A stretch of 64,000 nt of DNA from a virus (Duplodnaviria > Caudoviricetes), in IMG/VR virus record IMGVR_UViG_3300028591_000142, positions 1 to 64,000 of that record. One strand, 5' to 3'. Below are positions 5,455 through 19,435 of the stretch, piece by piece. How positions within the stretch are numbered: position 1 is the stretch's first letter; the number at the start of each line of letters is the position of its first letter. The notes beneath the pieces were generated by a model. The model saw only the letters and a program-made list of their open reading frames with translations. It was not told the DNA's origin and made no database searches. The position numbers and the translations under genes were made by a program.

Positions 5455-5682
5455 ATGATTAGAGTCACAGTAGGTAATAACGTAAAGAGAGAGGTAGTTA
5501 TTGTTCCTGAGAACACTACACTTCGCACAGTTCTTGAAGATAACGGTATTGATTACACAAGAGGTATGCTTCAGCTTGATAGCAGCCCGCTTGCACCCGG
5601 CGACCTTGATAAGAGTTTTGCAGATTTCGGTATTGCTGATAAGTGCTTCCTTATCAATGTTGTAAAGGCTGACAACGCCTAA
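5455..5682 (+). CDS. ubiquitin-like (beta-grasp) protein, C-terminus VVKADNA
   Basis: 75 aa with the beta-grasp pattern IRVTVG..EVVIVPENTTLRTVLE..LDSSPL..DLDKSFADFGI; lies in an operon with E2-like, JAB and E1 genes. Confidence 0.75.
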   Translation: MIRVTVGNNVKREVVIVPENTTLRTVLEDNGIDYTRGMLQLDSSPLAPGDLDKSFADFGIADKCFLINVVKADNA

Positions 5683-5720
5683 ATCTTCCAAGCCCGTCGC
5701 TCGTCGGCGGGCTTTACTAT

Positions 5721-5804
5721 GGGAGATTGGCGGAATGGGCAGACGCACAAGACTTAAAATCTTGTAAAGGGAACTTTGTGAGGGTTCAAGTCCCTCATCT
5801 CCCA
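5721..5804 (+). tRNA. tRNA-Leu(TAA)
   Basis: Acceptor gggagat/atctccc; D loop tggcggaatgggcagacgc; anticodon arm caaga-ctTAAaa-tcttg; long variable arm; T loop ttcaagt. Confidence 0.93.
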
Positions 5805-5833
5805 TTTCACTATTTTAAAGGAGGTTTTTGTGA

Positions 5834-7291
5834 ATGTTTAGGCAGACAGTTTGTGAGACTGGCTTGACCTCGGGAATTGCTAATGAGTATTTTCAAAGCA
5901 TCAATGGCGTAAATTATGACGGCGATAATTCATTTGTCGCTACGCTGAGGGCTTTACTTGCCAATAGAATTGGTGACGGGTATTTAAATTATAGATTATC
6001 AAGACATAACGCAAGTTATTCTGATTTATCAAAAATGTCCGTTAATACCGTTAGAGGTTTCTTTAGCGGGGAAGAGTCGGCGATAGCGGATTGTTCAAAT
6101 ACAATCTCATTATATGAAATCAGTAATATGACTTCGGAGGGTAAAGAATTATTTACCAAGAAATTTGCTCAGGCGTTTCCGGGATACGAAAGGTTGGAAA
6201 AGGTTACTGACTTTTTCCAGAATGCGTTTTTCGTATTATGTTTTATTAACCCGGAACTTAAGAGTGTCATTCTTATCACAGAACAACTTGGTTATCAGAA
6301 ATATCACTACTTACAGTGTGCAACAGTCGCATTTTTCCCGTGGTATTTTTCAGCAAGCGAGGGTATATCTGAAGATGAGATGGCTCTTATTAGTTCGCTT
6401 AGAGAAAAAACGGACGAAAAATATCTGAGCGCTATTGCAAAAATTGCAGAACAGTATAATTTCCGAGAGATATTTATTAAGTCAAAACTTTTGGGTTTTG
6501 AAAATAGATTTGCGGATTATGAAATAAGACGCTCAACAAATGATATTGAACGATTCGAAGCTGATATCGAAAATTATTACCGTTCAATAAGCGATAGATT
6601 ATCACGAATAAACGAACTTAATATAAGAATACTCGGACTTCAGGCAAAGAAGGCTGGTAATTCTGATGATTCAGAATTAATGGAATATTTCTTATCAAAT
6701 AAAAACTTGGTTCTTCAGGACGTAAGCGAGAGTGAGTTATCCTTCTGTGTAAATGGATATCTTTCTGCTTGGGACGAAGAAGCCGCTGAAACATACATAA
6801 ACAACCGTAGTTCTATATGGTATATGACACGCGAGTCCTTTACAGAAAAACAAATATATAGGTTTTTGAAAGCAGTTTTCTTAGACAGAAAATTCAAAAT
6901 CAGAACTTGTTCGGCATTTATATTTGACACACAAAGAGCAAGTGTTACTGCTCGTTCTGGATATGATTTTTCTCATATACAAGAGTGTAAGCAAAGTATT
7001 GCCAATCCGCATCTTTATCATTTCCATTGTATGGGTGACAATGAGAGGATTTGTGTAGAGGCTTTAAGAAATCAGGATTATATATTTGCGTTTGAACAGG
7101 TAATAGCATCAAATGCAAGTTTGAATTTCCACGACAGCCCAGTTACAACAAGGTTTGCTGGCGATTTATTCCGTTCAAGACGTACACTCGAATGTATTGA
7201 ACTTCCGGACGGAAATATCGTAAGTGTAGCACGAGCTATTGAAATACTTGATAACGAAGAAAGGACTGAGGAAAATGGCGAAGATAATTAA
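5834..7291 (+). CDS. coiled-coil protein with a C-terminal prokaryotic E2-like domain
   Basis: Central coiled coil; the motif NPHLYHFHCMG resembles the E2 HPN...C active site; operon context between Ubl and JAB. Confidence 0.6.
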   Translation: MFRQTVCETGLTSGIANEYFQSINGVNYDGDNSFVATLRALLANRIGDGYLNYRLSRHNASYSDLSKMSVNTVRGFFSGEESAIADCSNTISLYEISNMTSEGKELFTKKFAQAFPGYERLEKVTDFFQNAFFVLCFINPELKSVILITEQLGYQKYHYLQCATVAFFPWYFSASEGISEDEMALISSLREKTDEKYLSAIAKIAEQYNFREIFIKSKLLGFENRFADYEIRRSTNDIERFEADIENYYRSISDRLSRINELNIRILGLQAKKAGNSDDSELMEYFLSNKNLVLQDVSESELSFCVNGYLSAWDEEAAETYINNRSSIWYMTRESFTEKQIYRFLKAVFLDRKFKIRTCSAFIFDTQRASVTARSGYDFSHIQECKQSIANPHLYHFHCMGDNERICVEALRNQDYIFAFEQVIASNASLNFHDSPVTTRFAGDLFRSRRTLECIELPDGNIVSVARAIEILDNEERTEENGEDN

Positions 7292-8126
7292 ATTAACCGA
7301 CGAGTATAAAGGCGACATCCTTGATAAATTCAAAAAATTTATCGAGGAAATAAAAATGGCAGACGGTAAAATAAACTTCACCGATACATTTTCGTTGCCA
7401 GAACGGAAAGCAACTTTGCTTTTTTCCGAAAAAGCCTGGATTAAAATGCATCGTCTCGTATCCCATTTCGATAAAGAGGTTGCGTGGCACGGAACCGCAA
7501 GACGAGGTGAGGATGGAAAAGATGAATATATTATTGATGATATTTTCGTCTATCCGCAGGAAGTTACCGGTGCAACCGTAAATACAGACCAAAAGGAATA
7601 TCAGGAGTGGCTTTATGGTCTTGAGGATAATGTATTCAACAACCTTCGTATGCAAGGTCATTCCCACGTCAATATGGGAACAACCCCGAGTGGCGTTGAT
7701 ATTACACATCAGGAAAAAATTATTGAACAACTCGACGACAGTATGTTCTATATTTTCTTGATATGGAATAAAAAAGACGAAAGAACAATCAAAATATATG
7801 ATTTTGCAAAAAATGTTTTGTTTGAAACAGCAGATGTTAATATCGTGGTTCTTGAAGAAGATATAGGAATTATATCGTTCATTGAAGACGCAGACGATAT
7901 GGTAAAAACAAAAACATATACGAGTTCATACGGAAAACAGGACGAAAAGAAAAGTACAACACCGTCAAGTTCTTCAAAAGATAACAAAGATAGCAAAGAG
8001 CTTGAGTTATATGAGGGCGGAAAACGCAAAGGGCGTCGCCGCGAAGAAGATGATGAACTTTCAGAGTATGAAAAAATGTATAAATACGGGAGCGGTTTTA
8101 ATAGCGGTTATCCGTTTGATTATTAA
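7275..8126 (+). CDS. JAB/JAMM (MPN+) metallo-isopeptidase
   Basis: EVAW...QGHSHVNMGTTPSGVD matches the E-x(n)-HxH-x7-S-x2-D JAMM motif. Confidence 0.88.
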   Translation: MAKIIKLTDEYKGDILDKFKKFIEEIKMADGKINFTDTFSLPERKATLLFSEKAWIKMHRLVSHFDKEVAWHGTARRGEDGKDEYIIDDIFVYPQEVTGATVNTDQKEYQEWLYGLEDNVFNNLRMQGHSHVNMGTTPSGVDITHQEKIIEQLDDSMFYIFLIWNKKDERTIKIYDFAKNVLFETADVNIVVLEEDIGIISFIEDADDMVKTKTYTSSYGKQDEKKSTTPSSSSKDNKDSKELELYEGGKRKGRRREEDDELSEYEKMYKYGSGFNSGYPFDY

Positions 8127-8144
8127 TAAAAAGGGGAGATACAT

Positions 8145-8684
8145 ATGACAAGACAGGAATATTATGAGCAGACCGAAACTCTCTGCGATATTATTGAAGT
8201 AGCCAGCGAGTATGGTCACTGGGCTGAATCAATTGTGAACGAAGACAACTATTATAGTTGTGTTAATTCCGACCTCTACGATATGGTCACAGATGGTGGC
8301 TATGACTGGGAAGAAGTCAGAGAGTATCTTGACAACATTCCTACGGGTTATGAACTCTATACTTGTGACGGATGGCTCTGTTATGAACCCGTAAATATGA
8401 CCGTTGAGGAAATCAGAGACGACCTTTTTGACTATCTCTGGGAAAATGGTTATATCGACGAGGAAGACGAAGAAAATGAAGATTCTCCAATTGATATTGA
8501 TTATGATGAAGAACTTGAAGACGTTCTTTATGATGATGCTTGTGATTTCAGTGCGGGTGAAACCATCTCGATTGATGTGCTGATGGTTGCTGCTCACGCA
8601 GAATTTCAGGAAATACAGACAAAACGTGAAAAAGAACAGAAGAAACTTAATGAGGCTTTCCAGGTTTTAACACTTGGTGAATAA
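8145..8684 (+). CDS. highly acidic hypothetical protein
   Basis: ORF with RBS inside the Ubl operon; very Asp/Glu rich. Confidence 0.75.
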   Translation: MTRQEYYEQTETLCDIIEVASEYGHWAESIVNEDNYYSCVNSDLYDMVTDGGYDWEEVREYLDNIPTGYELYTCDGWLCYEPVNMTVEEIRDDLFDYLWENGYIDEEDEENEDSPIDIDYDEELEDVLYDDACDFSAGETISIDVLMVAAHAEFQEIQTKREKEQKKLNEAFQVLTLGE

Positions 8685-8698
8685 CGGGGGTAAATATA

Positions 8699-9370
8699 AT
8701 GAATTTAAGCAAATCTTATGATTTTTTTCAGCCGGATAAAGACACATCTATGATACACATAGTAGGGTGTGGTTCGGTCGGTTCAACGCTTGCGGAAAAT
8801 CTTGCAAGATGTGGAGTAACAAGGTTTACCCTTTGGGATTTTGATACAGTAGAACCTCACAATATTGTTAATCAGATGTTTACTCAAAAAGATGTCGGCA
8901 AAACAAAGGTCGAGGCTCTTCGCGATATCATTATTGAGATAAATCCTGATGCAACAGAAACAATTAAGCTTAAACCCGAGGGTTGGAAGGGCGAAATAAT
9001 GTCCGGGTATATCTTCCTTGCGGTAGATAGTATTGAGATACGCAAGGAAATTGTTGAGAAACACTTAACAAGTTCATTCGTTAAGGCAATCCTTGACTTC
9101 AGAACCCTTCTCGAAGGCGCACAGCATTATGCCGCTGACTGGTCTGTCTATAAAGATAGACAAAACTTGTTGAAAACTATGCAGTTTTCACACGAAGAAG
9201 CCGCAGAAGAAACCCCTGTATCGGCTTGTGGTGTAACGCTTGGAGTCGCAACAACCGTAAGATTGATTTGCGCACTTGGCGTAAACAATTATATAAACTT
9301 TGTAAAAGGTAATGGACTGTGGAAGTTTGTTCAGATAGACGGTTTCCACGGTATTCTTGATTGTTTTTAA
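8699..9370 (+). CDS. ThiF/MoeB/E1 family adenylyltransferase
   Basis: IHIVGCGSVGS nucleotide-binding loop; WDFDTVEPHNIVNQ; candidate catalytic Cys in PVSACG. Confidence 0.92.
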   Translation: MNLSKSYDFFQPDKDTSMIHIVGCGSVGSTLAENLARCGVTRFTLWDFDTVEPHNIVNQMFTQKDVGKTKVEALRDIIIEINPDATETIKLKPEGWKGEIMSGYIFLAVDSIEIRKEIVEKHLTSSFVKAILDFRTLLEGAQHYAADWSVYKDRQNLLKTMQFSHEEAAEETPVSACGVTLGVATTVRLICALGVNNYINFVKGNGLWKFVQIDGFHGILDCF

Positions 9371-9373
9371 GGA

Positions 9374-10013
9374 GTGATTACTATGTCATTAACGGTATCT
9401 CAAAACGCAAACGAGAACGATATCTTGAATGGTATGGTTGCAGACAGGCTCGCCGAAGACTGGAATATATTTGTAAAAGAACGGACGTTTCAATATATTC
9501 GTGGGGCGGATATGAAAGACTGGAATTTTGTACGTCTTTCATATGAAATCACAATAAAAAATGAAATTGCGGAAATGTTCTTAGATGAAAGAATTGTTTT
9601 ATCCAACGAAGAATGTGTGTTCTTGTTAGACAAGGACAACATACTTGATTTTTTGTATCAAGGTTGGTTGGATTCTGATTTTTCGATACAAGATGTTCTC
9701 CGCGATTGCATTAAAGACACAATACAGTTATTTGTTTGTAATAAAAACGAGGGTATTGAAAATGGATGATATGAATACAATTTTTACACGAGATGAAGCC
9801 GCTAATATAGTGGAAAAGTTCGAAGAAGTGTTAATTGAAAACAATATCTGTGTACCAAGTCCAGAAGATGATGAAAGAGAGCCCGATGATATGATTGGGC
9901 TTTACGGAACAGTCTATTTTGGACTCGTAGATTACGTCGAATCCAAGATAAAAGATATCCTTGAAAGATATAAGAATGGTGAAGATGTGGTCACTGAAAT
10001 GTTTTATTATTGA
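9374..10013 (+). CDS. two hypothetical ORFs (9374-9769; 9762-10013)
   Basis: Coupled ORFs with RBSs. Confidence 0.65.
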
Positions 10014-10038
10014 TGTTAATATTTTTAACATAAATTAA

Positions 10039-10358
10039 GCTATAATGCGATAGTATTTCAATTATTTTGAATACGCTTTTGCTGTTAGCGGAAGTAACAA
10101 CTTGAGAGGATGAGAGACGGCACCGAGATGGAAGCTGTGCATCCCGGATGGCAGGTCATCAGATTTTTGGAACACATTTTTCTTGAATTGTCAAGTTAAA
10201 TCTTAACAATTTTAAAATAATTTATCCAAAACTCTACCAACTCACCGTAGTTTCGCCATCTTACCACACGAGAAAGTAACGATTACGACTGGTAAGAAAG
10301 CGTTAATGCATCCCTCAGGACGCAGCGAAGGGAAAGCTACATAAATTAAGATTATAGC
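10039..10358 (+). ncRNA. retron msr/msd-like ncRNA, cassette 1 (type A), directly upstream of the RT
   Basis: a1/a2 gctataat (10039-46) / attatagc (10351-58); G at 10047; stem-loop cttttgct-gtt-agcggaag at 10076-94. Confidence 0.85.
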
Positions 10359-10383
10359 GTAAATATAAGGGAGGTTTTGTTAA

Positions 10384-11526
10384 ATGGTTTATTTAACTAC
10401 AAGACTTAATAAGCAAACCCACCAGATGTCGCTTGAAGAGTTGATGTTTGGTACAAGCACTCCGGTTCCTACCGGGTTTAATGTTCAGGGTACAAGCACG
10501 AGGACGGTTTGTGTAAATAGTATACCCGAAAAGTATCTTGAAAAGCTTAACAGACAGCTTTTAATCAGAACCTTGTATGATTTTAACCGTAAGTACAAGG
10601 ATTTAAGAGAGAAGCCAAGGAAAGAGCTGTATCGTGAGTTCCATATACCCAAAAAGAGCGGTGGTTTAAGAAAAATTGATGCTCCGGAACCGGAACTTAT
10701 GGACGCCCTACGTGAATTAAAAGATATATTTGAAAAAGAGTTCGGTGTATTATATCATACATCGGCTTTTGCTTATGTAAAGGGCAGATGTGCCGTAGAT
10801 GCCGTAAAAAAGCATCAGGCAAATGAGTCCAGATGGTTTGGAAAGTTTGATTTATCAAACTTCTTTGGCAGTACCACACTTGAATTTGTAATGAAAATGT
10901 TTTCTCAGGTTTTCCCGTTTTCTGAGATTGTTAAACTCGAGATGGGAAGAGAAGCGTTGGAAACGGCTCTTGAACTTGCATTTCTTGACGGTGGTTTACC
11001 GCAGGGAACTCCGATTTCGCCACTTATCACCAATGTAATGATGATTCCTGTTGATTATAAATTAACAAAAACATTAAGCGACTACGAAAAACAAAAATAT
11101 ATTTACACAAGGTATGCTGATGACTTTATAATCTCATCTAAATATGATTTTGACTTTAAAAAGATTGAGAGTTTGATAAAGTCCACTCTTGCAGAGTTTG
11201 ATGCGCCGTTTACCATTAAGTCCCAAAAGACAAGATATGGTTCTGCAAATGGTTCAAACTGGAATCTTGGAGTAATGCTTAATAAAGACGGGAAAATCAC
11301 CGTTGGTCATAAGAAAAAGCGTCAGTTTAAGGCAATGGTAACATCATATGTACTCGATAGGAAAAACGGTATGGAGTGGGAACGTACTGATGTTCAGGTT
11401 CTTGACGGGTATCGTAATTATTACAAGTCCGTAGAGGGTAATTGTATTGATGATATCGTTAAAAAAATCGGCGATAAGTTCGGTGTTGATGTCTTTGCAC
11501 TTTTAAAAGCCGACTTAAGGAAATAA
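10384..11526 (+). CDS. retron-type reverse transcriptase
   Basis: IPKKSGGLRKIDAP; region-X-like DAVKKH; KFDLSNFF; LPQGTPISP; YTRYADD; NLGV region-Y-like. Stand-alone 380 aa with no maturase or endonuclease domain. Confidence 0.92.
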   Translation: MVYLTTRLNKQTHQMSLEELMFGTSTPVPTGFNVQGTSTRTVCVNSIPEKYLEKLNRQLLIRTLYDFNRKYKDLREKPRKELYREFHIPKKSGGLRKIDAPEPELMDALRELKDIFEKEFGVLYHTSAFAYVKGRCAVDAVKKHQANESRWFGKFDLSNFFGSTTLEFVMKMFSQVFPFSEIVKLEMGREALETALELAFLDGGLPQGTPISPLITNVMMIPVDYKLTKTLSDYEKQKYIYTRYADDFIISSKYDFDFKKIESLIKSTLAEFDAPFTIKSQKTRYGSANGSNWNLGVMLNKDGKITVGHKKKRQFKAMVTSYVLDRKNGMEWERTDVQVLDGYRNYYKSVEGNCIDDIVKKIGDKFGVDVFALLKADLRK

Positions 11527-11535
11527 ATAATTAAT

Positions 11536-11841
11536 AATAAATAATAATGTAATTGTATTCAGGTTTTTTGAGTACGCTTTTGCTGTCAGCGAAAGTAGCA
11601 ATTTGATGAGACGAGATAGTACACACGGAGGACGCAACAAATCCAGATGAGAATCATTTAGATATAATTATTTACATTTAATTTTCTTACTTGGATTAAG
11701 AATACTCTTTTTCCCTGTATTATCAAGACTTTTTCGTCTGACTCTATATCGAATTTCTAATGTTACGAGTTAATCTACATCAACTTTATCTAAGTTATCC
11801 CGATTGGATTTAACGGGTTTCTTTTTTGATTATTATTTATT
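11536..11841 (+). ncRNA. retron-like ncRNA cassette 2 (type A)
   Basis: 13-bp IR aataaataataat (11536-48) / attattatttatt (11829-41); G at 11549; core cttttgctgtcagcgaaag at 11577-95. Confidence 0.82.
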
Positions 11842-11924
11842 CTTTAGTTAGAGATGGTATTTCTCTTTACAACAGAGGTCTCACAACCCTTGATATATAA
11901 GGGTTTTTAGAATGATTTACAACC

Positions 11925-12194
11925 TTGGTGGTTGTAAAAGTAATAAGAAAGGTTGTTATTATGGACGAAAATAACTGCGCAAATATTATTGTGTGTCTCA
12001 GAGATATTAACGGCAAGAGAACAAAACATAAATTTGATTATTTTACAGAAGCATATATGTATTTTTACCGCTGTATACAAAGAAAAGAAGAAGAGGAAGA
12101 AATACTATATGTTACAGTCGACGGTGCGTGCGTGTATTCGTCGATTACTGACGGGCTAATATTCTATGAAGACCTCATAGGATTTTTTGCATAA
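11925..12194 (+). CDS. hypothetical protein (start probably ATG 11961)
   Basis: ORF between cassettes 2 and 3. Confidence 0.6.
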   Translation: MVVVKVIRKVVIMDENNCANIIVCLRDINGKRTKHKFDYFTEAYMYFYRCIQRKEEEEEILYVTVDGACVYSSITDGLIFYEDLIGFFA

Positions 12195-12201
12195 TTAACT
12201 A

Positions 12202-12663
12202 ACCCATAATGCAGATTGGTTTTTAAACCGTGTGATGTTATCAGGAGTGCTTGTAGGGGCTTTATCCTACAGAACTATTGTGCAATATAGAATTAGATTT
12301 AGATTTAGTAATGAAGTACATACAACGGAGTGCACGTCCAAAGGTATGGGCACAACTCTTAATCATCACACAGTAGTGTTTATTAACTCCTTTTGCTGTT
12401 AGCGAATGGTTAGAAACGGTAGCTATGCTTAATTTTGAAGAACCGTCTTCGAAAGAGAGTTGGCGAAGTGCGCACTTTTTATTCTCAAGTTCCGAGTCGG
12501 CTTTTCGTGCTTTAAGCACTCAAGCCACTACGGAACATAAGAATAAGAAAGACGCGCAACTCGCCACACCTCTTCGAAGACCGTTCTTCCAAAATTAATC
12601 AATGCTTTCCGTAAAACGTCACCTTGAGGAACAACTCCCAAGGAACCGTTTTAGATTATGGGT
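12202..12663 (+). ncRNA. retron-like ncRNA cassette 3 (type B)
   Basis: IR acccataat / attatgggt; G at 12211; core cttttgctgttagcgaa at 12390-406; ~170-nt hairpin at 12429-12598. Confidence 0.88.
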
Positions 12664-12696
12664 AACAGGTAAACAATAAGGGGAGGCTTTATTACT

Positions 12697-14572
12697 ATGA
12701 CAAATAGAGAGATAGGAATAGCGGATTATTTATGTTGTTCCTGCAATGAAAGAGTTCCGGGTAAATCAGAATACGGACACGCGGTTTATTGTGCAAAGCG
12801 TATGGACGATACCGACGAAAGTTGTCCGATTATAAAAGCTGCCCTGGATAAGTACAGAGATAAAGCGGAATGCGATTATGACTGCGAAAATTGTGTACTT
12901 GTTTTTAGAGAAGGCGGCGATGACTTTTATGAGTATTGTGTAAAGACGGGGGTGCCATTTTAATTATGATGTTAGAACAAAGGGTTCAGTCAGCTATTGA
13001 GAAAATAACCGATATAACCGGTGTGGCTTTTGTGCTTTATGTCCCGAATGCCGGAGACACTAATTATTATTGGAATACTAAGAATTTGAATAGTTTAATT
13101 GATAAGGATTCAAGGAAAATAAAAAGTAGTTTATTAAATCAGTGTGGACGATTTAAGTGTATAACTATTGACAGTGCTAATGATTATACTTGTGATTCTT
13201 GTTCAAATGAAATGTATGAAAGGCTTTTGACTGGCTTATATATCGGCGCATCCAAGTTTCGCAATGATGTTGGCGATAGAATCACTGACATCGACTTTCT
13301 AATAGGGGATTGTGGGTTAGACCGAAATGAAATAGATGGTTTTTGTTGTATATTATTTGCGCTTGCGGCAATTAGTAAAGAAGAATATAACAAAGTGTGT
13401 CTGGGGGTGGACTTATTATGATATTAACAGATAAAGAATATAGCGTAATAAACAGAATTGCAGACGCCTGTAAAATGGACTGGTTTCTTATAGGTCAAGA
13501 CGAAATCCGTGGCGATTATGTATGCGACCTTGAATCTCAGACGGAAATGAGTTTAAGAGATGGAATATTACAGTTATGCGAGGGTATTGTGAGCGACCAA
13601 CACCTCATAGACTACTGTGATATCACACAGGAAGAAATAGATTTGTTCCATTGTGTTCTTGTAAACCTTGGTTTGGAAAATAACTTTGAACTCGGTGATA
13701 AAACAGTCGTTATATCACAACCAGTAATTAATATACAGAATATAGATTTCTTTGACGACCTCGAGTATGACTGCTGGAACTTATTTAAACAGTATCTCGG
13801 CGCCTTTGATATTCAAATCGTGCCGGAAGAAGACGGTGATTATGATGATATAGACTTTTCTATTGCAAAGGAAATTCAGGAAAAGGTTTTGGAAATCATA
13901 GAAAATGGTGGTATAAAACTTGAGTTTGATTAACATCGGGAGGAATGTAAATGACTAATCAAGAAGCATATACCCATATAAAATCAAGACTTAAAGAATA
14001 TATACAATGCACAGATGATAATATTGCTTTATATACGGCTCTTAAAGCACTGGAAAAGCAAATACCGCTTCATACACGACTCTTAAATCATTTGAAAAGC
14101 AGATACCAAAAAACCAAAAATAATATTAGGAGGAATAAGTGATATGAAGGACATAACTATTACAGTTTTCCCGTTTGTATCTCAGACGGGTAGTCTAAAG
14201 GTGCCAGATGAGCTAAAAACCAGAGAAGAAATCAAAGACTATATAGACGAACATTGGGATGAAATTGATTTCGAACCCCGTTACCAGGCTGATTTTGATT
14301 ACTCTGGTGCAGACTACGATTTTTATGATTGAGGTATTAATATGAAACAATGTAAATTTCTTGACAAAGAAAATCACGAAGTACACGGCGGCATCATAGA
14401 TGACGAAGGCAATATTATTTGCGGATGTTGCGGTGGTTTAATAGAAGCAGATGAGATAGGTGATGACGAAGATGCGACTCACCGTATCTTAGAGGTTTAT
14501 GATACTTGGGTAGACCTAAGCTCCGAGATTTGCGGAGATGATATTGATTTTGATTCCGGATACGGTTTCTAA
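12697..14572 (+). CDS. cluster of small hypothetical ORFs (12697-12963, ~12966-13421, ~13418-13933, 13951-14142, 14144-14332, 14342-14572)
   Basis: Co-oriented ORFs, several with clear RBSs; Cys-rich or acidic. Confidence 0.65.
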
Positions 14573-14576
14573 ACAA

Positions 14577-14913
14577 ATGCTTACAATGTAGATTGGTTAA
14601 TACATATTGGTTTTTTAACCACTCTTGTTGGTTAGCGAGAGTTCAACAATGGTAGCTATGCTAATTTCTAAAATTAGTCACTGCAATGAGCCAGTCCGAA
14701 TCCATTACTTGATTCGCCAACTACCAACTTACCGTGCTGACGCACGGTTGCCTTGGTAAGTTGGACGAAATCAAAGTAAAGATTCGAGACACGGCTCCAT
14801 TGCAGTATAATTTTGAAATTATCAATGCATAAGTAATTAATTACTCCCTGGATGGTAAGCCTCCTCCCCGAGGAGCTAACCATCCATCTGTAATTAAATT
14901 AGATTGTAAGTAT
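14577..14913 (+). ncRNA. retron-like ncRNA cassette 4 (type C)
   Basis: IR atgcttacaat / attgtaagtat; G at 14588; core actcttgttggttagcgagagt at 14621-42; hairpin at 14662-14821. Confidence 0.88.
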
Positions 14914-14914
14914 G

Positions 14915-15249
14915 CTCATAATGTAGATTGGTTAAATACATATTGGTTTTTTTAACCGCTCTTGTTGGTTAGCGAGAGTTCGACAATGGTAGCTATGCTT
15001 AATTGATTTCCGAAGCCCACTTTGCTCCGCACCCGTTACGCGACACGGTTCCATAGCCTGTACAATTTATTAGATAAATTGTACAGCATAGAAAACCGTG
15101 TCAGCGAAACTTGTTCGGAGCAAAAGGGCTCAGAAACAATTAATCAATGCCCGGTACTTAATTTATTACAGGCCGCCGGGCTGCCTAATTCCGTTCCACA
15201 GGAAACGGCAGCCCTCTCCGCCTTCACAATAAATTAATTAGATTATGAG
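14915..15249 (+). ncRNA. retron-like ncRNA cassette 5 (type C), in tandem with cassette 4
   Basis: IR ctcataat / attatgag; G at 14923; the 5' ~80 nt are nearly identical to cassette 4; different hairpin at 14999-15143. Confidence 0.88.
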
Positions 15250-15273
15250 ATAAAATAAAAGGGAGAGAGGTTT

Positions 15274-15702
15274 ATGAGAATCGACAGATACGATACCGAT
15301 ATTTCAACTCTTGATGACTTAATATCTTTATTAGTTGACAGATGTGTAGTTTTATTTTGTAACACCAGAGAAGAACGAAAAAGGGTTTTACTCACGCTAA
15401 CCCGATATGCTGGTGTATCACACCCGAGGATATTTCCGGGAGACTATGAAAACTACGAAAGACATACTTGTAATAACGAGCAAGCAGACGATATGGATTT
15501 TCCTTGCGTTCGCTTGCATCAAAGAAGGGAAGGAGATTCTCCTGACGCCAGAACGCCAACATATTACACCGTAAGTTGTTGTACCGGGAGGAGTGAGAAC
15601 TGGAGTCGTATTACTTATGACGAGGTGTATTTTCTCTTTGAACAAGACGCGCAAATAAATATACGAACAGAGGATGAATTATGTCAATTCTTATTTAGTT
15701 AA
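15274..15702 (+). CDS. hypothetical protein with C-terminal TEDELCQFL motif
   Basis: RBS; carries the shared C-terminal motif. Confidence 0.7.
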   Translation: MRIDRYDTDISTLDDLISLLVDRCVVLFCNTREERKRVLLTLTRYAGVSHPRIFPGDYENYERHTCNNEQADDMDFPCVRLHQRREGDSPDARTPTYYTVSCCTGRSENWSRITYDEVYFLFEQDAQINIRTEDELCQFLFS

Positions 15703-15918
15703 CAAGAATAAGTAAAACAAACAAATATGGATGGGTTTAAGGGAAATCTTACCCCATCTTCCAGTATGGTGTTGTCGACGCACCCTCGTTGAGTTTAGCT
15801 CTCGTTGTAGGTACGAGAAGCACGATACACCTCTCAATGCGATTCCTGACTTCCAAATTGTATTGATGTGTCCCAAAGCGTGGAAAAGCCTACTAATTTA
15901 AACCGGAGGTATTGCAAT

Positions 15919-16209
15919 ATGAACACGCTATTTCGTACGGGTGATTATATTAAAGGGGTTAATAATGGTTATAGTATCACAAACCAATATATGCGTTGTG
16001 CAATTGTTCTCAATGGTGATATTAAAAAAGATTATCACGTTATGATGTCAATCCGTGTGATTGACCACGATGATGAGCGTTATATTGGCGAGGAATTTAA
16101 GGTTGAGAATGATGATAATTTGTTTTGTTTGATAGACAACGCTTTATCAAGTGAAGATATTTGTTCAAATGAAGAACTTATTGATTTTATAAATAACTCC
16201 GTAACATAA
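15919..16209 (+). CDS. small protein of the FxxGDxI / SxxELxxF family
   Basis: RBS ggagg; FRTGDYIKG...SNEELIDFI. Confidence 0.7.
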   Translation: MNTLFRTGDYIKGVNNGYSITNQYMRCAIVLNGDIKKDYHVMMSIRVIDHDDERYIGEEFKVENDDNLFCLIDNALSSEDICSNEELIDFINNSVT

Positions 16210-16242
16210 AACCCATATTTCATAAAAATAAGGAGGTAGAAA

Positions 16243-16761
16243 ATGGCTGTAAGCGAAAAAGAGAAGACCATTCATATTATGGTCACAAGTCTTTGTAAGA
16301 GAAACTGTAGATACTGTTGTAATAAGCAGTATAACCTAAACGATATTCCCTATGTAACAGATGATGAGTTACGGAACGCACATACGATTCTTTTAACAGG
16401 CGGAGAGCCTTTTGCTTTTACCGACCCTTGTGAAATTGCAGCATATTATAAGTCTCGTTATCCAAACATTCGTAATGTATATGTGTATGGAAACGCAACA
16501 GAAATTGTTGAATATCTTTACAGACACATAGGCGCCACGTTTGCAGATATTGACGGAATTACCGTGTCAATAAAAAATGATTTAGATAAACGGGTATTTG
16601 GTAACATATTAAACGATAAAAGAATTAAAAACTTGCGTAGTAACTGGTTGTTTGTGTTTAATAAACTGATGCCGACAGAAACAGGCGATTTTAAAGTCAT
16701 AGCAAGAGAGTGGCAGGAATCTTTTATACCTGACAATAACTCAATATTCCGTAAAGCGTAG
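16243..16761 (+). CDS. radical SAM protein (short)
   Basis: CKRNCRYC (CxxxCxxC) and LLTGGEP. Confidence 0.85.
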   Translation: MAVSEKEKTIHIMVTSLCKRNCRYCCNKQYNLNDIPYVTDDELRNAHTILLTGGEPFAFTDPCEIAAYYKSRYPNIRNVYVYGNATEIVEYLYRHIGATFADIDGITVSIKNDLDKRVFGNILNDKRIKNLRSNWLFVFNKLMPTETGDFKVIAREWQESFIPDNNSIFRKA

Positions 16762-16775
16762 GAGGGGAAATCGAG

Positions 16776-17054
16776 TTGATAAAGTATAGACCACAAAGAG
16801 GAAGTCTTTCCGATGCAATGAAAGAATATCGAGAATTTTTCACAATTGATGAGATGTTTGATTATGTTGTTCGAAAATATGGGGACGGAATACTCTTTAC
16901 AAAAGCAGATTTGTCTATTGGTGAGGATTTAGGTGAAGATGAACGCATTGGTTGGACAAATTCACATCATATTTTAACAAATCGTAGTGGAGATAGGGAT
17001 TTTATTAAAATGTATGGGGTGCCTCAATGTGTAGGCTGGTGCTCTATAGATTAA
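16776..17054 (+). CDS. hypothetical protein
   Basis: RBS ggagggg with a TTG start. Confidence 0.65.
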   Translation: MIKYRPQRGSLSDAMKEYREFFTIDEMFDYVVRKYGDGILFTKADLSIGEDLGEDERIGWTNSHHILTNRSGDRDFIKMYGVPQCVGWCSID

Positions 17055-17057
17055 TTA

Positions 17058-17126
17058 TGCACATTCGTTCAACGGTAGGACACTCCCGGAAGGGGAGAAG
17101 AAACCAGTTCGACTCTGGTATGTGAG
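17058..17126 (+). ncRNA. tRNA-like element with a non-canonical anticodon loop
   Basis: D arm gttc-aacggta-ggac; arm ctccc-ggaag-gggag; T arm accag-ttcgact-ctggt; acceptor cacat/atgtg. Confidence 0.65.
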
Positions 17127-17191
17127 ACGGAGAGTCCACACGCTCAAAGTTAGGTAGGTTATTGTGTGGGAATAACCTACCGAAATCTATA

Positions 17192-17314
17192 TGGATAGTG
17201 GCGGAATAGGTAGACGCTTAGTACGTAAGGTGAAGATGAAGGTCGAACAGCGCTGGACTGACGAGTCCCTTACCGCAGTACCACCATACAAGGTGCAAAT
17301 CCTTGTCTATCCAA
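17192..17314 (+). ncRNA. tRNA-like element with a ~70-nt insert replacing the anticodon and variable arms
   Basis: Acceptor tggatag/ctatcca; Leu-type D loop tggcggaataggtagacgc; T arm caagg-tgcaaat-ccttg. Confidence 0.75.
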
Positions 17315-17530
17315 AACGGGTCTACGTCTTACGCTTCGTTGGATACATTAAGGGAACGAGCTGTGGCAAGCAGGCACTAACTGCTACAGTGAAGGTAATC
17401 AGGCTTCACTTTTAAATGAGAATTAAATGGTGCTGAACAAAGGATTAGCCTTTCGGGAACTTGCGGTTAACAACAGTTCTGTTTATGAGTTTCGATGCCA
17501 GTGTACAGGGTGTGCCAGCTCACAATATAC

Positions 17531-17619
17531 GCCCGAGTAGTTTAAGTAAAACAAACGGTGGATTTTTGCCCCCTTTGCCGCCGTAATACATATCAGTCCA
17601 AGTCTGGTCTCGGGTACCA
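17531..17619 (+). ncRNA. tRNA-like element with an expanded anticodon loop and encoded CCA
   Basis: Acceptor gcccgag/ctcgggt followed by A-CCA; D arm gttt-aagta-aaac; arm acggtgg-16nt-ccgccgt; T arm atcag-tccaagt-ctggt. Confidence 0.7.
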
Positions 17620-17935
17620 GATGGGTTGATAAACAACCCACATAAGCATCACCCCTCACTAAAAATATTATTCCCACCACCCGGTACTTTAGGTATTGTT
17701 GCACAAAACATACATAACAATGTGTAATTGGTTTTTGAAATAAGCAATGTTTCTACAATGATGCTTGAAGTGGAATCACGTGAAAGCCGGGGAACTCCAG
17801 GGAGACTCCCTGCTCGGTAGGTTGTGCTACCACTATTTCAGACGGGTAAAACCCATCCTTATGAGCAATCAATATTTGGGCTTTACAATAGTATTACTAT
17901 AGGCGACGGGTTCCGTCTTCCCTTCGCCGGTTTTT

Positions 17936-18317
17936 TTATTCATAATGCAGATTAGTTTTAAGCCGTGTAAAATGGTTAGGTGTCTTCCGTTTACCCTGTA
18001 TTCGGGGTAAAGCCTAACAAGATTACATATTAAAGTTTGAAACTCCTTTTGCTGTTAGCGAACGGTTAGAAACGGTAACTATGCTTAATTTTGAGAACCG
18101 TCTCCCTAAGAGGAACGGCGGACTACACTCCATCCTCATTCATAACCAAGTTGGCTTTTCGTGCTTTAAGCACTCAAGCCACTTGAGTATATGAATGAAG
18201 ATAGGAGTGTTTACCGCCGACTCCTCTATGGGAGACAGGTTCTTTCCAAAATTAATCAATGCTACTGTGAAATCATTCTCCTGGTTAGCCTTGACGAATG
18301 ATTCAGATTATGAATAA
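17936..18317 (+). ncRNA. retron-like ncRNA cassette 6 (type B)
   Basis: 11-bp IR ttattcataat / attatgaataa; G at 17947; core at 18046-62; hairpin at 18085-18255. Confidence 0.88.
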
Positions 18318-18328
18318 GGAGAGGAAAT

Positions 18329-18643
18329 ATGAATGAAACCCAGATTCTACAGTTTATAAAAAGATTTCAGCATCCATACACACTCGTGTTATTCACACGT
18401 GGGTGTTGTTATTGGTTTGCTACAATTCTGTTTGAAAGGTTTTATGACTATGGAGCAGAGATAATGTATGCTCCTATAGAAAATCACTTTGCAGTCAGGA
18501 TAAACAAGGAGATTTACGATATTACTGGTAATATTACAGAGTCTTCTATTTATACACAATGGGTAAGATGGTGCGATTTTGACGACGAACTTGAAAGAAA
18601 AAGAATCGAACGTGATTGTATCTTATTCTTACCATACGACTAA
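18329..18643 (+). CDS. hypothetical protein (GCCYWFA...H motif, possible papain/transglutaminase-like fold)
   Basis: RBS aaggagagg abuts the a2 arm of cassette 6. Confidence 0.7.
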   Translation: MNETQILQFIKRFQHPYTLVLFTRGCCYWFATILFERFYDYGAEIMYAPIENHFAVRINKEIYDITGNITESSIYTQWVRWCDFDDELERKRIERDCILFLPYD

Positions 18644-18652
18644 ATCATCAGA

Positions 18653-18974
18653 GCTATAATGTAATTGTATTCAGGTTTTTGAGTACGCTTTTGCTGTCAG
18701 CGAAAGTAACGATTTGATGAGTGGAGAAAGGCACACCCCCAGGACGAACGCCATCCGCGGGACGGTACTTCTCGAATCAAACTATCCCCAACACCGTCAG
18801 GAAAATCAGGTGTGTTAAGGAAAACAAGGCATACTTACGTAACAAAATGCCAGTTTCCAAGCAAGAAACAAGGGAAATAAGAGCTGCGGACTCATCAGAG
18901 GACATCGCCTCAAGTATCCTGCAGGCGACGTATTCCAGCTCCCGGAACAGCAATCACTCTATTAAGATTATAGC
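18653..18974 (+). ncRNA. retron-like ncRNA cassette 7 (type A)
   Basis: IR gctataat / attatagc; G at 18661; 5' region nearly identical to cassette 2 (taatgtaattgtattcaggtttttgagtacgcttttgctgtcagcgaaagta). Confidence 0.85.
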
Positions 18975-19000
18975 ACTAAAAGACTAAAGGAGGATTTTAA

Positions 19001-19435
19001 ATGTCAATGAGGTATTACGCCTTTGATGATTATGGTTTGGTTTTTAATATCAATCATATGAATTTACTCGCATCCGCTATATGTAATGATTTTTCTCAGG
19101 AAAAATGGGATAACGACCGTGATTATGTGTATGATTGCATAGACGAGGTACGTTCGTTATTTGAAATTGAATATGTGCCTGAGTTTTCTGGCGAGTGTTT
19201 CCCGCTAAATGATGATGGTACAAACAACTATAGCAATAGCGACATAATAACATATCTCGACGGGGATGAACTTTGGTATATGCCGTCTAACAGATATCCG
19301 GTATTATTTAAAGCGGCTTATAATTGTATGTCAGATTTAGTTTCTGAATTTAAGAAATGTTTTGTGGAATATTTACCACTTGATTTCGATTATAGAACTA
19401 ACATAAAACATATTATCGGAACTTATTATGGTTAA
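19001..19435 (+). CDS. hypothetical protein
   Basis: RBS aaggagg. Confidence 0.75.
   Translation: MSMRYYAFDDYGLVFNINHMNLLASAICNDFSQEKWDNDRDYVYDCIDEVRSLFEIEYVPEFSGECFPLNDDGTNNYSNSDIITYLDGDELWYMPSNRYPVLFKAAYNCMSDLVSEFKKCFVEYLPLDFDYRTNIKHIIGTYYG

Follow-up and report, generated by a model that had tools for sequence, protein, structure and literature searches.

Tandem retron-type RNA units with a shared handle and unrelated interiors in a large phage: a probable natural case of several templates for one reverse transcriptase

Retrons are known as bacterial defence systems that combine one reverse transcriptase (RT), one template RNA and one toxin. Orphan msr-msd-RT cassettes occur in RT clades 2 and 11 (PMC7736814); they resemble the phage locus described here in pairing a retron RT with ncRNA and no effector, but they are cellular and contain a single ncRNA. 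In the type VI retron Retron-Vpa2, template RNA is likewise joined to a downstream coding sequence (CDS) on one transcript, the hybrid RNA (hyRNA), in which the CDS is translationally repressed and msDNA derepresses it (10.1101/2025.10.22.683967). Exactly the layout of our tandem pair, with the same msr, a different msd per unit and one RT, exists in the engineered “multitron”, where a single retron RT reverse-transcribes each of the msr-msd units placed in tandem on one transcript (10.1101/2023.07.17.549397). The multitron was built from Retron-Eco1 and delivers editing donors, whereas the phage array is natural and its units have private closing arms (a1/a2). A description of a natural phage retron template array was not found in the retron literature that we searched.

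The window, i.e. the whole stretch of DNA analysed here, comprises the first 64 kb of a linear 98.3-kb IMG/VR record with an estimated completeness of 83%. Its genes lie on the + strand up to about 50 kb and have strong Shine-Dalgarno sites. Between 10 and 19 kb the record carries one RT gene and seven retron-like units (cassettes C1 to C7), all on the RT strand and spread over 9 kb:

10039-10358, + strand: cassette C1, directly upstream of the RT gene and ending 25 nt before its start, the canonical position of a retron ncRNA
10384-11526, + strand: retron-clade RT (YADD, 380 aa), the only RT of the window
11541-11836, + strand: cassette C2, directly downstream of the RT gene, with a less certain 3' end
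12203-12662, + strand: cassette C3, with the linkers of C4 and C5 and a large SL1 insert
14577-14913, + strand: cassette C4, complete as a retron-type ncRNA unit and followed by no gene of its own
14915-15249, + strand: cassette C5, a complete unit followed 10 nt on by a ribosome-binding site (RBS) and then by the open reading frame (ORF) 15274-15702
17939-18314, + strand: cassette C6, with the same linkers as C3-C5 and a hairpin apex shared with C3
18653-18974, + strand: cassette C7, recognised by the handle model and its arms

A covariance model of the 5' handle (R1) scores C4 with 39.1 bits (E 8e-5) and C5 with 38.9 bits, and on the entire 98.3-kb record its matches are confined to 10-19 kb; it misses C3 and C6 with their large SL1 insert, though both carry SL2, linkers and arms. 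At gathering thresholds Rfam reports two tRNAs only in the window, and relaxing the E-value up to 5 in 9900-19100 adds chance matches only.

The RT, located behind C1 and about 3 kb upstream of C4-C5, matches Pfam RVT_1 (1e-18), PADLOC RT_II-A (6.5e-48) and every other PADLOC retron RT model, and its nearest solved structures in the PDB are the RTs of retrons Ec83, Ec78 and Ec67. It has about 75 extra N-terminal residues, and no additional known domain was found in it with Pfam. By RT, the nearest classical retrons are the St85/Sen2-Ec78-Ec83 group (types II-A and I-A, Mestre et al. 2020, PMC7736814). Like these, the phage locus has a retron-clade RT, an ncRNA directly upstream on the same strand, an a1/a2 stem, a G ending a1, two handle stem-loops and a hairpin-rich template part. 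Unlike these, it is carried by a phage of about 100 kb instead of a cell, and it contains seven ncRNAs per RT over 9 kb, partly in tandem, with two hairpin domains per unit that are split by conserved linkers and mostly lead into a gene. In further contrast to classical retrons, the phage system lacks an NDT, ATPase, nuclease or other effector: PADLOC, Pfam and PHROG detected no effector and no NDT-like protein among the neighbours of the RT and the cassettes. The locus thus differs from a type II-A retron (St85/Sen2), since its RT scores 177.8 bits (2.8e-52) against NCBIfam retron_St85 and does not reach the curated cutoff of 235, and since an NDT-like or wHTH effector is missing; it also differs from tripartite defence retrons, which are defined by an effector gene or domain. 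The only PADLOC match near the RT belongs to a separate operon just upstream of the retron region (5455-9370), which encodes a ThiF/E1-like protein (Pfam 4.5e-23, PADLOC E1-E2 models) and is conserved in two related phage loci, L174 and L186. RNase H was not found in the 98.3-kb record; in L186 an RNase H gene (PF00075, 10245-10682) lies immediately upstream of the retron-type RT, which fits a role in cDNA maturation.

C4 and C5 are separated by the single base G14914. The following parts were recognised in the two units:

14577-14587, + strand: C4 5' closing arm a1, core CTTACAAT at 14580-14587, pairing with 14903-14913
14588, + strand: C4 G after a1, an invariant column and the candidate branching (priming) G by comparison with retrons
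14595-14620, + strand: C4 handle stem-loop SL1, present in the folds of the unit and of the pair
14621-14642, + strand: C4 handle stem-loop SL2, ACTCTTGTT-GGTT-AGCGAGAGT
14655-14661, + strand: C4 linker GCTATGC, shared with C5
14662-14821, + strand: C4 long imperfect hairpin (payload 1) with apex at 14731-14748, unlike the C5 payload
14822-14828, + strand: C4 linker TCAATGC, from sequence and alignment
14829-14899, + strand: C4 second hairpin (payload 2), from the fold
14900-14913, + strand: C4 TAG box and 3' closing arm a2, core ATTGTAAG at 14903-14910
14915-14923, + strand: C5 a1 CTCATAAT and G at 14923, from fold and arm alignment
14930-14979, + strand: C5 handle with SL1 (14930-14957) and SL2 (14958-14979), from fold and alignment
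15000-15143, + strand: C5 long hairpin (payload 1), whose apex at 15058-15086 pairs perfectly over 13 bp
15151-15238, + strand: C5 second hairpin (payload 2), from the fold
15239-15249, + strand: C5 TAG box and a2, ATTATGAG at 15242-15249

A sequence-only reading of this DNA had described C4 and C5 as abutting with a gap of 1 nt, sharing about 80 nt of 5' sequence and two linkers, and differing in both hairpins. Coordinates and pairwise alignment agree with this description. The first ~86 nt of the two units are ~95% identical (4 substitutions and 2 one-base indels), and past CTATGC the likeness falls to chance level up to the common 3'-end AATTAGATT with its TAGATT box, so that neither the long nor the second hairpins show alignment likeness. 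The apexes are likewise as described, ACCGTGC-TGAC-GCACGGT in C4 and the 13-bp hairpin in C5. The linker ctatgct is located at 14656-14662 in C4 and 14993-14999 in C5, and tcaatgc at 14822-14828 and 15144-15150; as had also been claimed, both recur in C3 (12423-12429 and 12599-12605) and C6 (18079-18085 and 18256-18262). GCTATGC is common to C4, C5, C3, C6, a unit of locus L004 (15343-15568) and L174. C3 and C6 further share an identical hairpin apex of ~31 nt (12499-12529 and 18153-18183) on compensatorily diverged stems, and the C4 apex likewise contains CGTGC...GCACG.

Both units are predicted to fold much more strongly than by chance (C4: -135 kcal/mol, z -13.6; C5: -129.6 kcal/mol, z -9.8), and the 676-nt pair (z -16.9) folds into two separate, independent domains. 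Both follow the same plan, in which SL1 and SL2 come after the closing stem and the unpaired G; a linker then leads to the long hairpin (~150 nt), which TCAATGC separates from the second hairpin (70-85 nt), and TAG and the 3' arm end the unit. As DNA, the reverse complements of C4 and C5 likewise contain two hairpins each. ORFs within the cassettes, for example 15022-15237 (71 aa, TTG start), were rejected as spurious; this one has no RBS and spans the hairpin arms. Downstream of the gene behind C5, a non-coding gap of 215 nt (15703-15918) contains CTCAATGC, has a modest fold (z = -2.6) and is possibly what is left of a decayed cassette.

The closing arms are not the same in all units: CTTACAAT / ATTGTAAG in C4, CTCATAAT / ATTATGAG in C5, GCTATAAT / ATTATAGC in C1 and C7, CCCATAAT / ATTATGGG in C3 and TTCATAAT / ATTATGAA in C6. 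Each unit thus has a private terminal stem, of 8-11 bp in C4 and C5, and the two positions at which a1 of C4 differs from a1 of C5 are both compensated in a2. Among 35 cassettes from 16 phages, all 280 of 280 cells of the 8-bp a1/a2 stem are paired and 7 of 8 pairs show compensatory changes, where the full pairing is partly circular, as these cassettes were chosen by requiring it; with the partner shifted by 1-3 columns only 28-49% of cells pair. When units were found by the 5' handle alone, nearly all had a matching arm 226-460 nt downstream with (T)AG before the arm, for which the chance expectation is roughly estimated at ~3% per unit. The G after a1 (column 9) is present in 35 of 35 cassettes, including G14588 and G14923. 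SL2 is 98% paired in 50 units, with compensatory changes in 6 of 6 pairs, and contains frequent U-G pairs; because these would be C-A mismatches on the other strand, they indicate a + strand RNA. With the handle model, 49-50 units were detected across 19 sources, each of them on the strand of the RT. The sequence of the SL1-equivalent hairpin differs in each cassette family. The SL2 type is uniform within a phage, either GCY-GTY-AGC or GCC-AAA-GGC, and follows the RT lineage, as expected if a single RT reads every unit. The comparison supports a constant scaffold, invariant among close relatives and maintained by compensatory changes among distant ones.

Several copies at intergenic sites, bounded by terminal inverted repeats, could also be MITE-like mobile elements that have spread through the early region. 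The arms, however, differ between copies and co-vary instead of being conserved, they include G-U pairs, all copies lie on one strand, and the internal hairpins show compensatory changes of RNA type. Target-site duplications are not evident and no transposase was found among the scanned nearby genes, so we consider mobile elements highly improbable.

The a1 arm ends in a (T/C)A(T/C)AAT-like sequence. The head motif around it, AATG-NAGATTGGTT, resembles a -10 box and is also present at sites that no cassette follows, at 17715 in the window and at 12650 and 15285 in L174. It might thus belong to a promoter or leader. With a transcription start within the motif, the RNA would lack a1 and the retron reading would fall; the covariation of the arms and the G-U pairs seem to argue against a promoter role. 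A scan for sigma-70 promoters returned 38 sites, little above the 30 expected, and the terminator scan listed no terminator-like site between C4 and C5. The stretch 17715-17935 and its counterpart in L174 (15285-15510) are structured, non-coding and opened by the head motif AAT/AAC-G-N-AATTGGTTTT; in the window it has neither SL2 nor a closing arm, and a terminator-like hairpin closes it immediately ahead of C6. Possibly the head motif is a promoter or leader module in its own right.

We propose that C4 and C5 are probably two complete msr-msd-like ncRNA units arranged head to tail, among seven that are served in trans by the RT of the phage. As judged from sequence, the putative ncRNAs agree in anatomy with a retron ncRNA at every sequence-level point: a retron-clade RT, an a1/a2-closed ncRNA beside the RT and on its strand, a G ending a1, and a handle matched to the RT. 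The usual ratio of one ncRNA per RT is replaced by seven units. In the proposed mechanism C4 and C5 would share one transcript, in which a private a1/a2 stem closes each unit. The candidate 2'-OH primer would be the unpaired G that ends a1 and faces the G of the TAG box, SL1 and SL2 would form the recognition element for the single retron-clade RT, and the variable interior would be the template; each hairpin is a candidate for the copied part (msd), and the earlier naming of both as msd is an assumption. Acting in trans on all seven units, the RT would produce a set of different small branched RNA-DNA molecules (msDNAs). We infer that the RNAs include a1 and are reverse-transcribed, as well as where synthesis starts and stops. 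Such a multi-template mechanism is feasible, since engineered tandem msr-msd arrays work with one RT. Further observations count against the retron reading: the RT stays under the St85 cutoff and has the extra N-terminal residues, the record has no effector or RNase H, and the two hairpins after the handle are unusual for a retron. The position of most units just before genes also fits a 5' leader and is considered below.

In T7-type phages, intergenic hairpins serve as RNase III sites. The long near-perfect hairpins between genes of an early operon might thus be structured intergenic RNAs that are never reverse-transcribed, acting as RNase III sites, mRNA stabilisers or protein-binding decoys, with a merely historical likeness to retrons. 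Yet everything that retron priming requires is kept, namely the a1/a2 stem, the invariant G and the stem-loops of the handle; these parts are invariant even where interiors differ by 12-24%, and an intact, conserved RT accompanies the elements in each contig examined. We regard RNAs that are not copied as an unlikely explanation.

Five of the seven units (C1, C3, C5, C6 and C7) end 10-35 nt before an RBS and a start codon, and units in relatives do likewise. Each unit might therefore be a 5' leader that works as an RT-coupled switch of translation or stability, where RT binding or copying together with RNase H cleavage alters the downstream gene and C4 is a spare or an extra layer before C5. 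The type VI retron RNA offers a precedent for a template linked to gene control. In Retron-Vpa2, however, the closing inverted repeat follows the CDS and the RBS is buried, whereas in the phage units a2 precedes the RBS: in C5, the RBS and the ATG at 15274 both come after a2 (15242-15249) and remain outside the predicted fold. Moreover, C4, C2 and the first member of each tandem pair have no gene directly behind them, and the downstream genes are mutually unrelated and vary between phages. Switches of this kind thus appear quite unlikely to us.

The layout is shared by a family of phages. RT homologues numbered 4,716 at E <=1e-20 among the candidates scored, and many of these come from human gut and rumen samples, where they lie on contigs 60-190 kb long. 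Several units per RT, mostly including a tandem pair immediately 3' of it, were found on more than 50 related phage contigs from gut or rumen; in each contig examined one unit precedes an intact RT and further units follow it, with 3-5 units per RT in relatives. Tandem pairs just 3' of the RT were found in L004, L005, the L006 group, L136, L137, L154, L179 and L180; their recurrence indicates that the C4-C5 layout is a habit of the family and not a one-off. Weak evidence for hosts among the Clostridia of gut or rumen comes from related contigs that fall into MAG bins of Ruminococcus and Clostridia, and from one homologue labelled Lachnospiraceae. Searches by short sequence gave less: a 14-mer of the linker had more than 100 matches in IMG/VR (loci L020-L135) that were judged to be chance, a stricter linker pattern was found in the contig of L004 only, a scan with an SL2 19-mer specific for C4/C5 gave no match, and neither did the collection of phage records in near or distant mode. 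The RT match in L180 (6001-7359) spans 1,359 nt for 378 residues, an excess of ~220 nt, which suggests a gene with an insertion or intron.

The sequence-only reading had further proposed a constant scaffold with a variable payload, a view that invariant payloads among relatives would contradict. In the L006 group, 17 phages whose RT genes are 96-99% identical, the 5' handles have a nucleotide diversity (pi) of 0.000, 0.002 and 0.018 and the 3' ends of 0.012-0.068, compared with 0.145, 0.118 and 0.243 in the interiors of the units, i.e. 2-5x the value of 0.051 at four-fold sites of the RT; the genes upstream exceed the RT somewhat in diversity. Within the RT, the values for codon positions 1, 2 and 3 (0.007, 0.004 and 0.041) indicate purifying selection on the enzyme. 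It is safe to say that in these alignments the interiors evolve at least at the pace of silent sites and one of them clearly outpaces these, whereas the handles are frozen. Over a larger distance, the nearest relative L174 (RT 77% identical, syntenic) has units at the positions of C1, C2, C3, C6 and C7 with conserved handles and 3' ends and unrelated interiors. The payloads are accordingly not invariant, either within the L006 group, where they are hypervariable, or between orthologous units, and the proposal of a constant scaffold with variable payload stands.

The occurrence of an RT beside hypervariable non-coding segments would also be expected for templates of a diversity-generating retroelement (DGR), or for a DRT2-like template that is copied into a gene. 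But the RT belongs to the retron clade and not to the DGR clade, the Drt2 model covers only its short core (1.2e-11), the variable sites of the L006 group show no adenine bias, and the 98.3-kb record contains no second copy of the payload (VR). Either of these origins would be very surprising.

The two adjacent units were also thought to have arisen by duplication. In favour of this, the handles of C4 and C5 are ~95% identical but share only 63-65% with those of C3 and C6; growth by duplication is plausible, although gene conversion fits equally well and the claim is unproven. In the proposed mechanism, recent duplication or gene conversion would account for the near-identical handles, and the interiors would have been replaced or have diverged, probably via recombination at the conserved linkers (GCTATGC, TCAATGC, TAGATT). 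L174 lacks C4, C5 and the gene behind C5, and the SL1 insert of C3 in the window sits at the position of C6 in L174, which shows that modules move between units. The gene behind C5 is also absent from the phage of L004; its sole homologue, on a short contig of 2,335 bp (GCA_016648615.1), is 91% identical and has an upstream gap of identical length (701 nt). A truncated cassette head (CCACAATGCAGATTGGTTAAT) lies in L174 at 12646-12700, right after its C3 and 5 nt past a complete cassette, and may be the remnant of a lost tandem partner. In the variable, T-poor interiors of type A units (L004 11466-11748, L017 9716-9983, L137 3662-3950) a small conserved hairpin R-TTG-Y ... R-CAA-Y, for example GTTGC-AGC-GCAAC or ATTGA-TTA-TCAAT, is situated mid-way and may correspond to the TCAATGC linker of C3-C6.

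The comparison with a CRISPR-like array, in contrast, did not hold. As in CRISPR arrays, a constant repeated part alternates with unique parts, but at most two units are adjacent and the rest are dispersed before genes, the constant part is a structured handle of ~86 nt, and the unique parts are self-complementary hairpins. The payloads gave no match in 50,697 phage records and only seven matches, at chance level (E 1e-3 to 1e-2 per genome), in 301 bacterial genomes from the order of the MAG that carries a related contig; the latter is a weak negative. A sign of ordered, polarised acquisition was not seen.

A large family of gut and rumen phages has a retron RT without a toxin, accompanied by several RNAs that resemble templates. 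Should the units be copied, the known roles would be reversed, with msDNA made by the virus and not by the cell; the arrayed-template design engineered for multiplex genome editing would already exist in nature, and tool builders would have a ready set of compatible handles with a compact RT. That the handles are frozen and the cargoes move fast points to a function in an arms race and is a direct target for experiments. The lack of an effector gene and an early region rich in likely take-over or counter-defence genes suggest a function directed at the host, and we tentatively consider that the products could target host factors, for instance as decoys or sponges directed at DNA-sensing or retron-type defences. 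More doubtfully, we speculate about a natural “multitron”, in which an effector-less RT copies fast-changing templates into an anti-host repertoire of small DNAs (stand-ins or sponges for retron or DNA-sensing defences) and new specificities arise by handle duplication and by swap or mutation of the cargo. By analogy with retron recombineering, the cDNAs, being error-prone, may return by recombination to the very loci that templated them and so diversify the cargoes, which would explain why the interiors alone outpace synonymous sites.

Two further elements were observed in the window. In a stretch of ~900 nt without ORFs, tRNA-like elements with acceptor, D and T arms were recognised by eye at 17058-17620, one of which (17192-17314) has a large insert in place of the anticodon arm; they were called neither by ARAGORN nor by Rfam, and a similar stretch is present in L174 (15090-15200). 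At the start of the record (1-210) there are three direct repeats of 70 nt, two of them identical, which may represent a genome end or an origin-type repeat.
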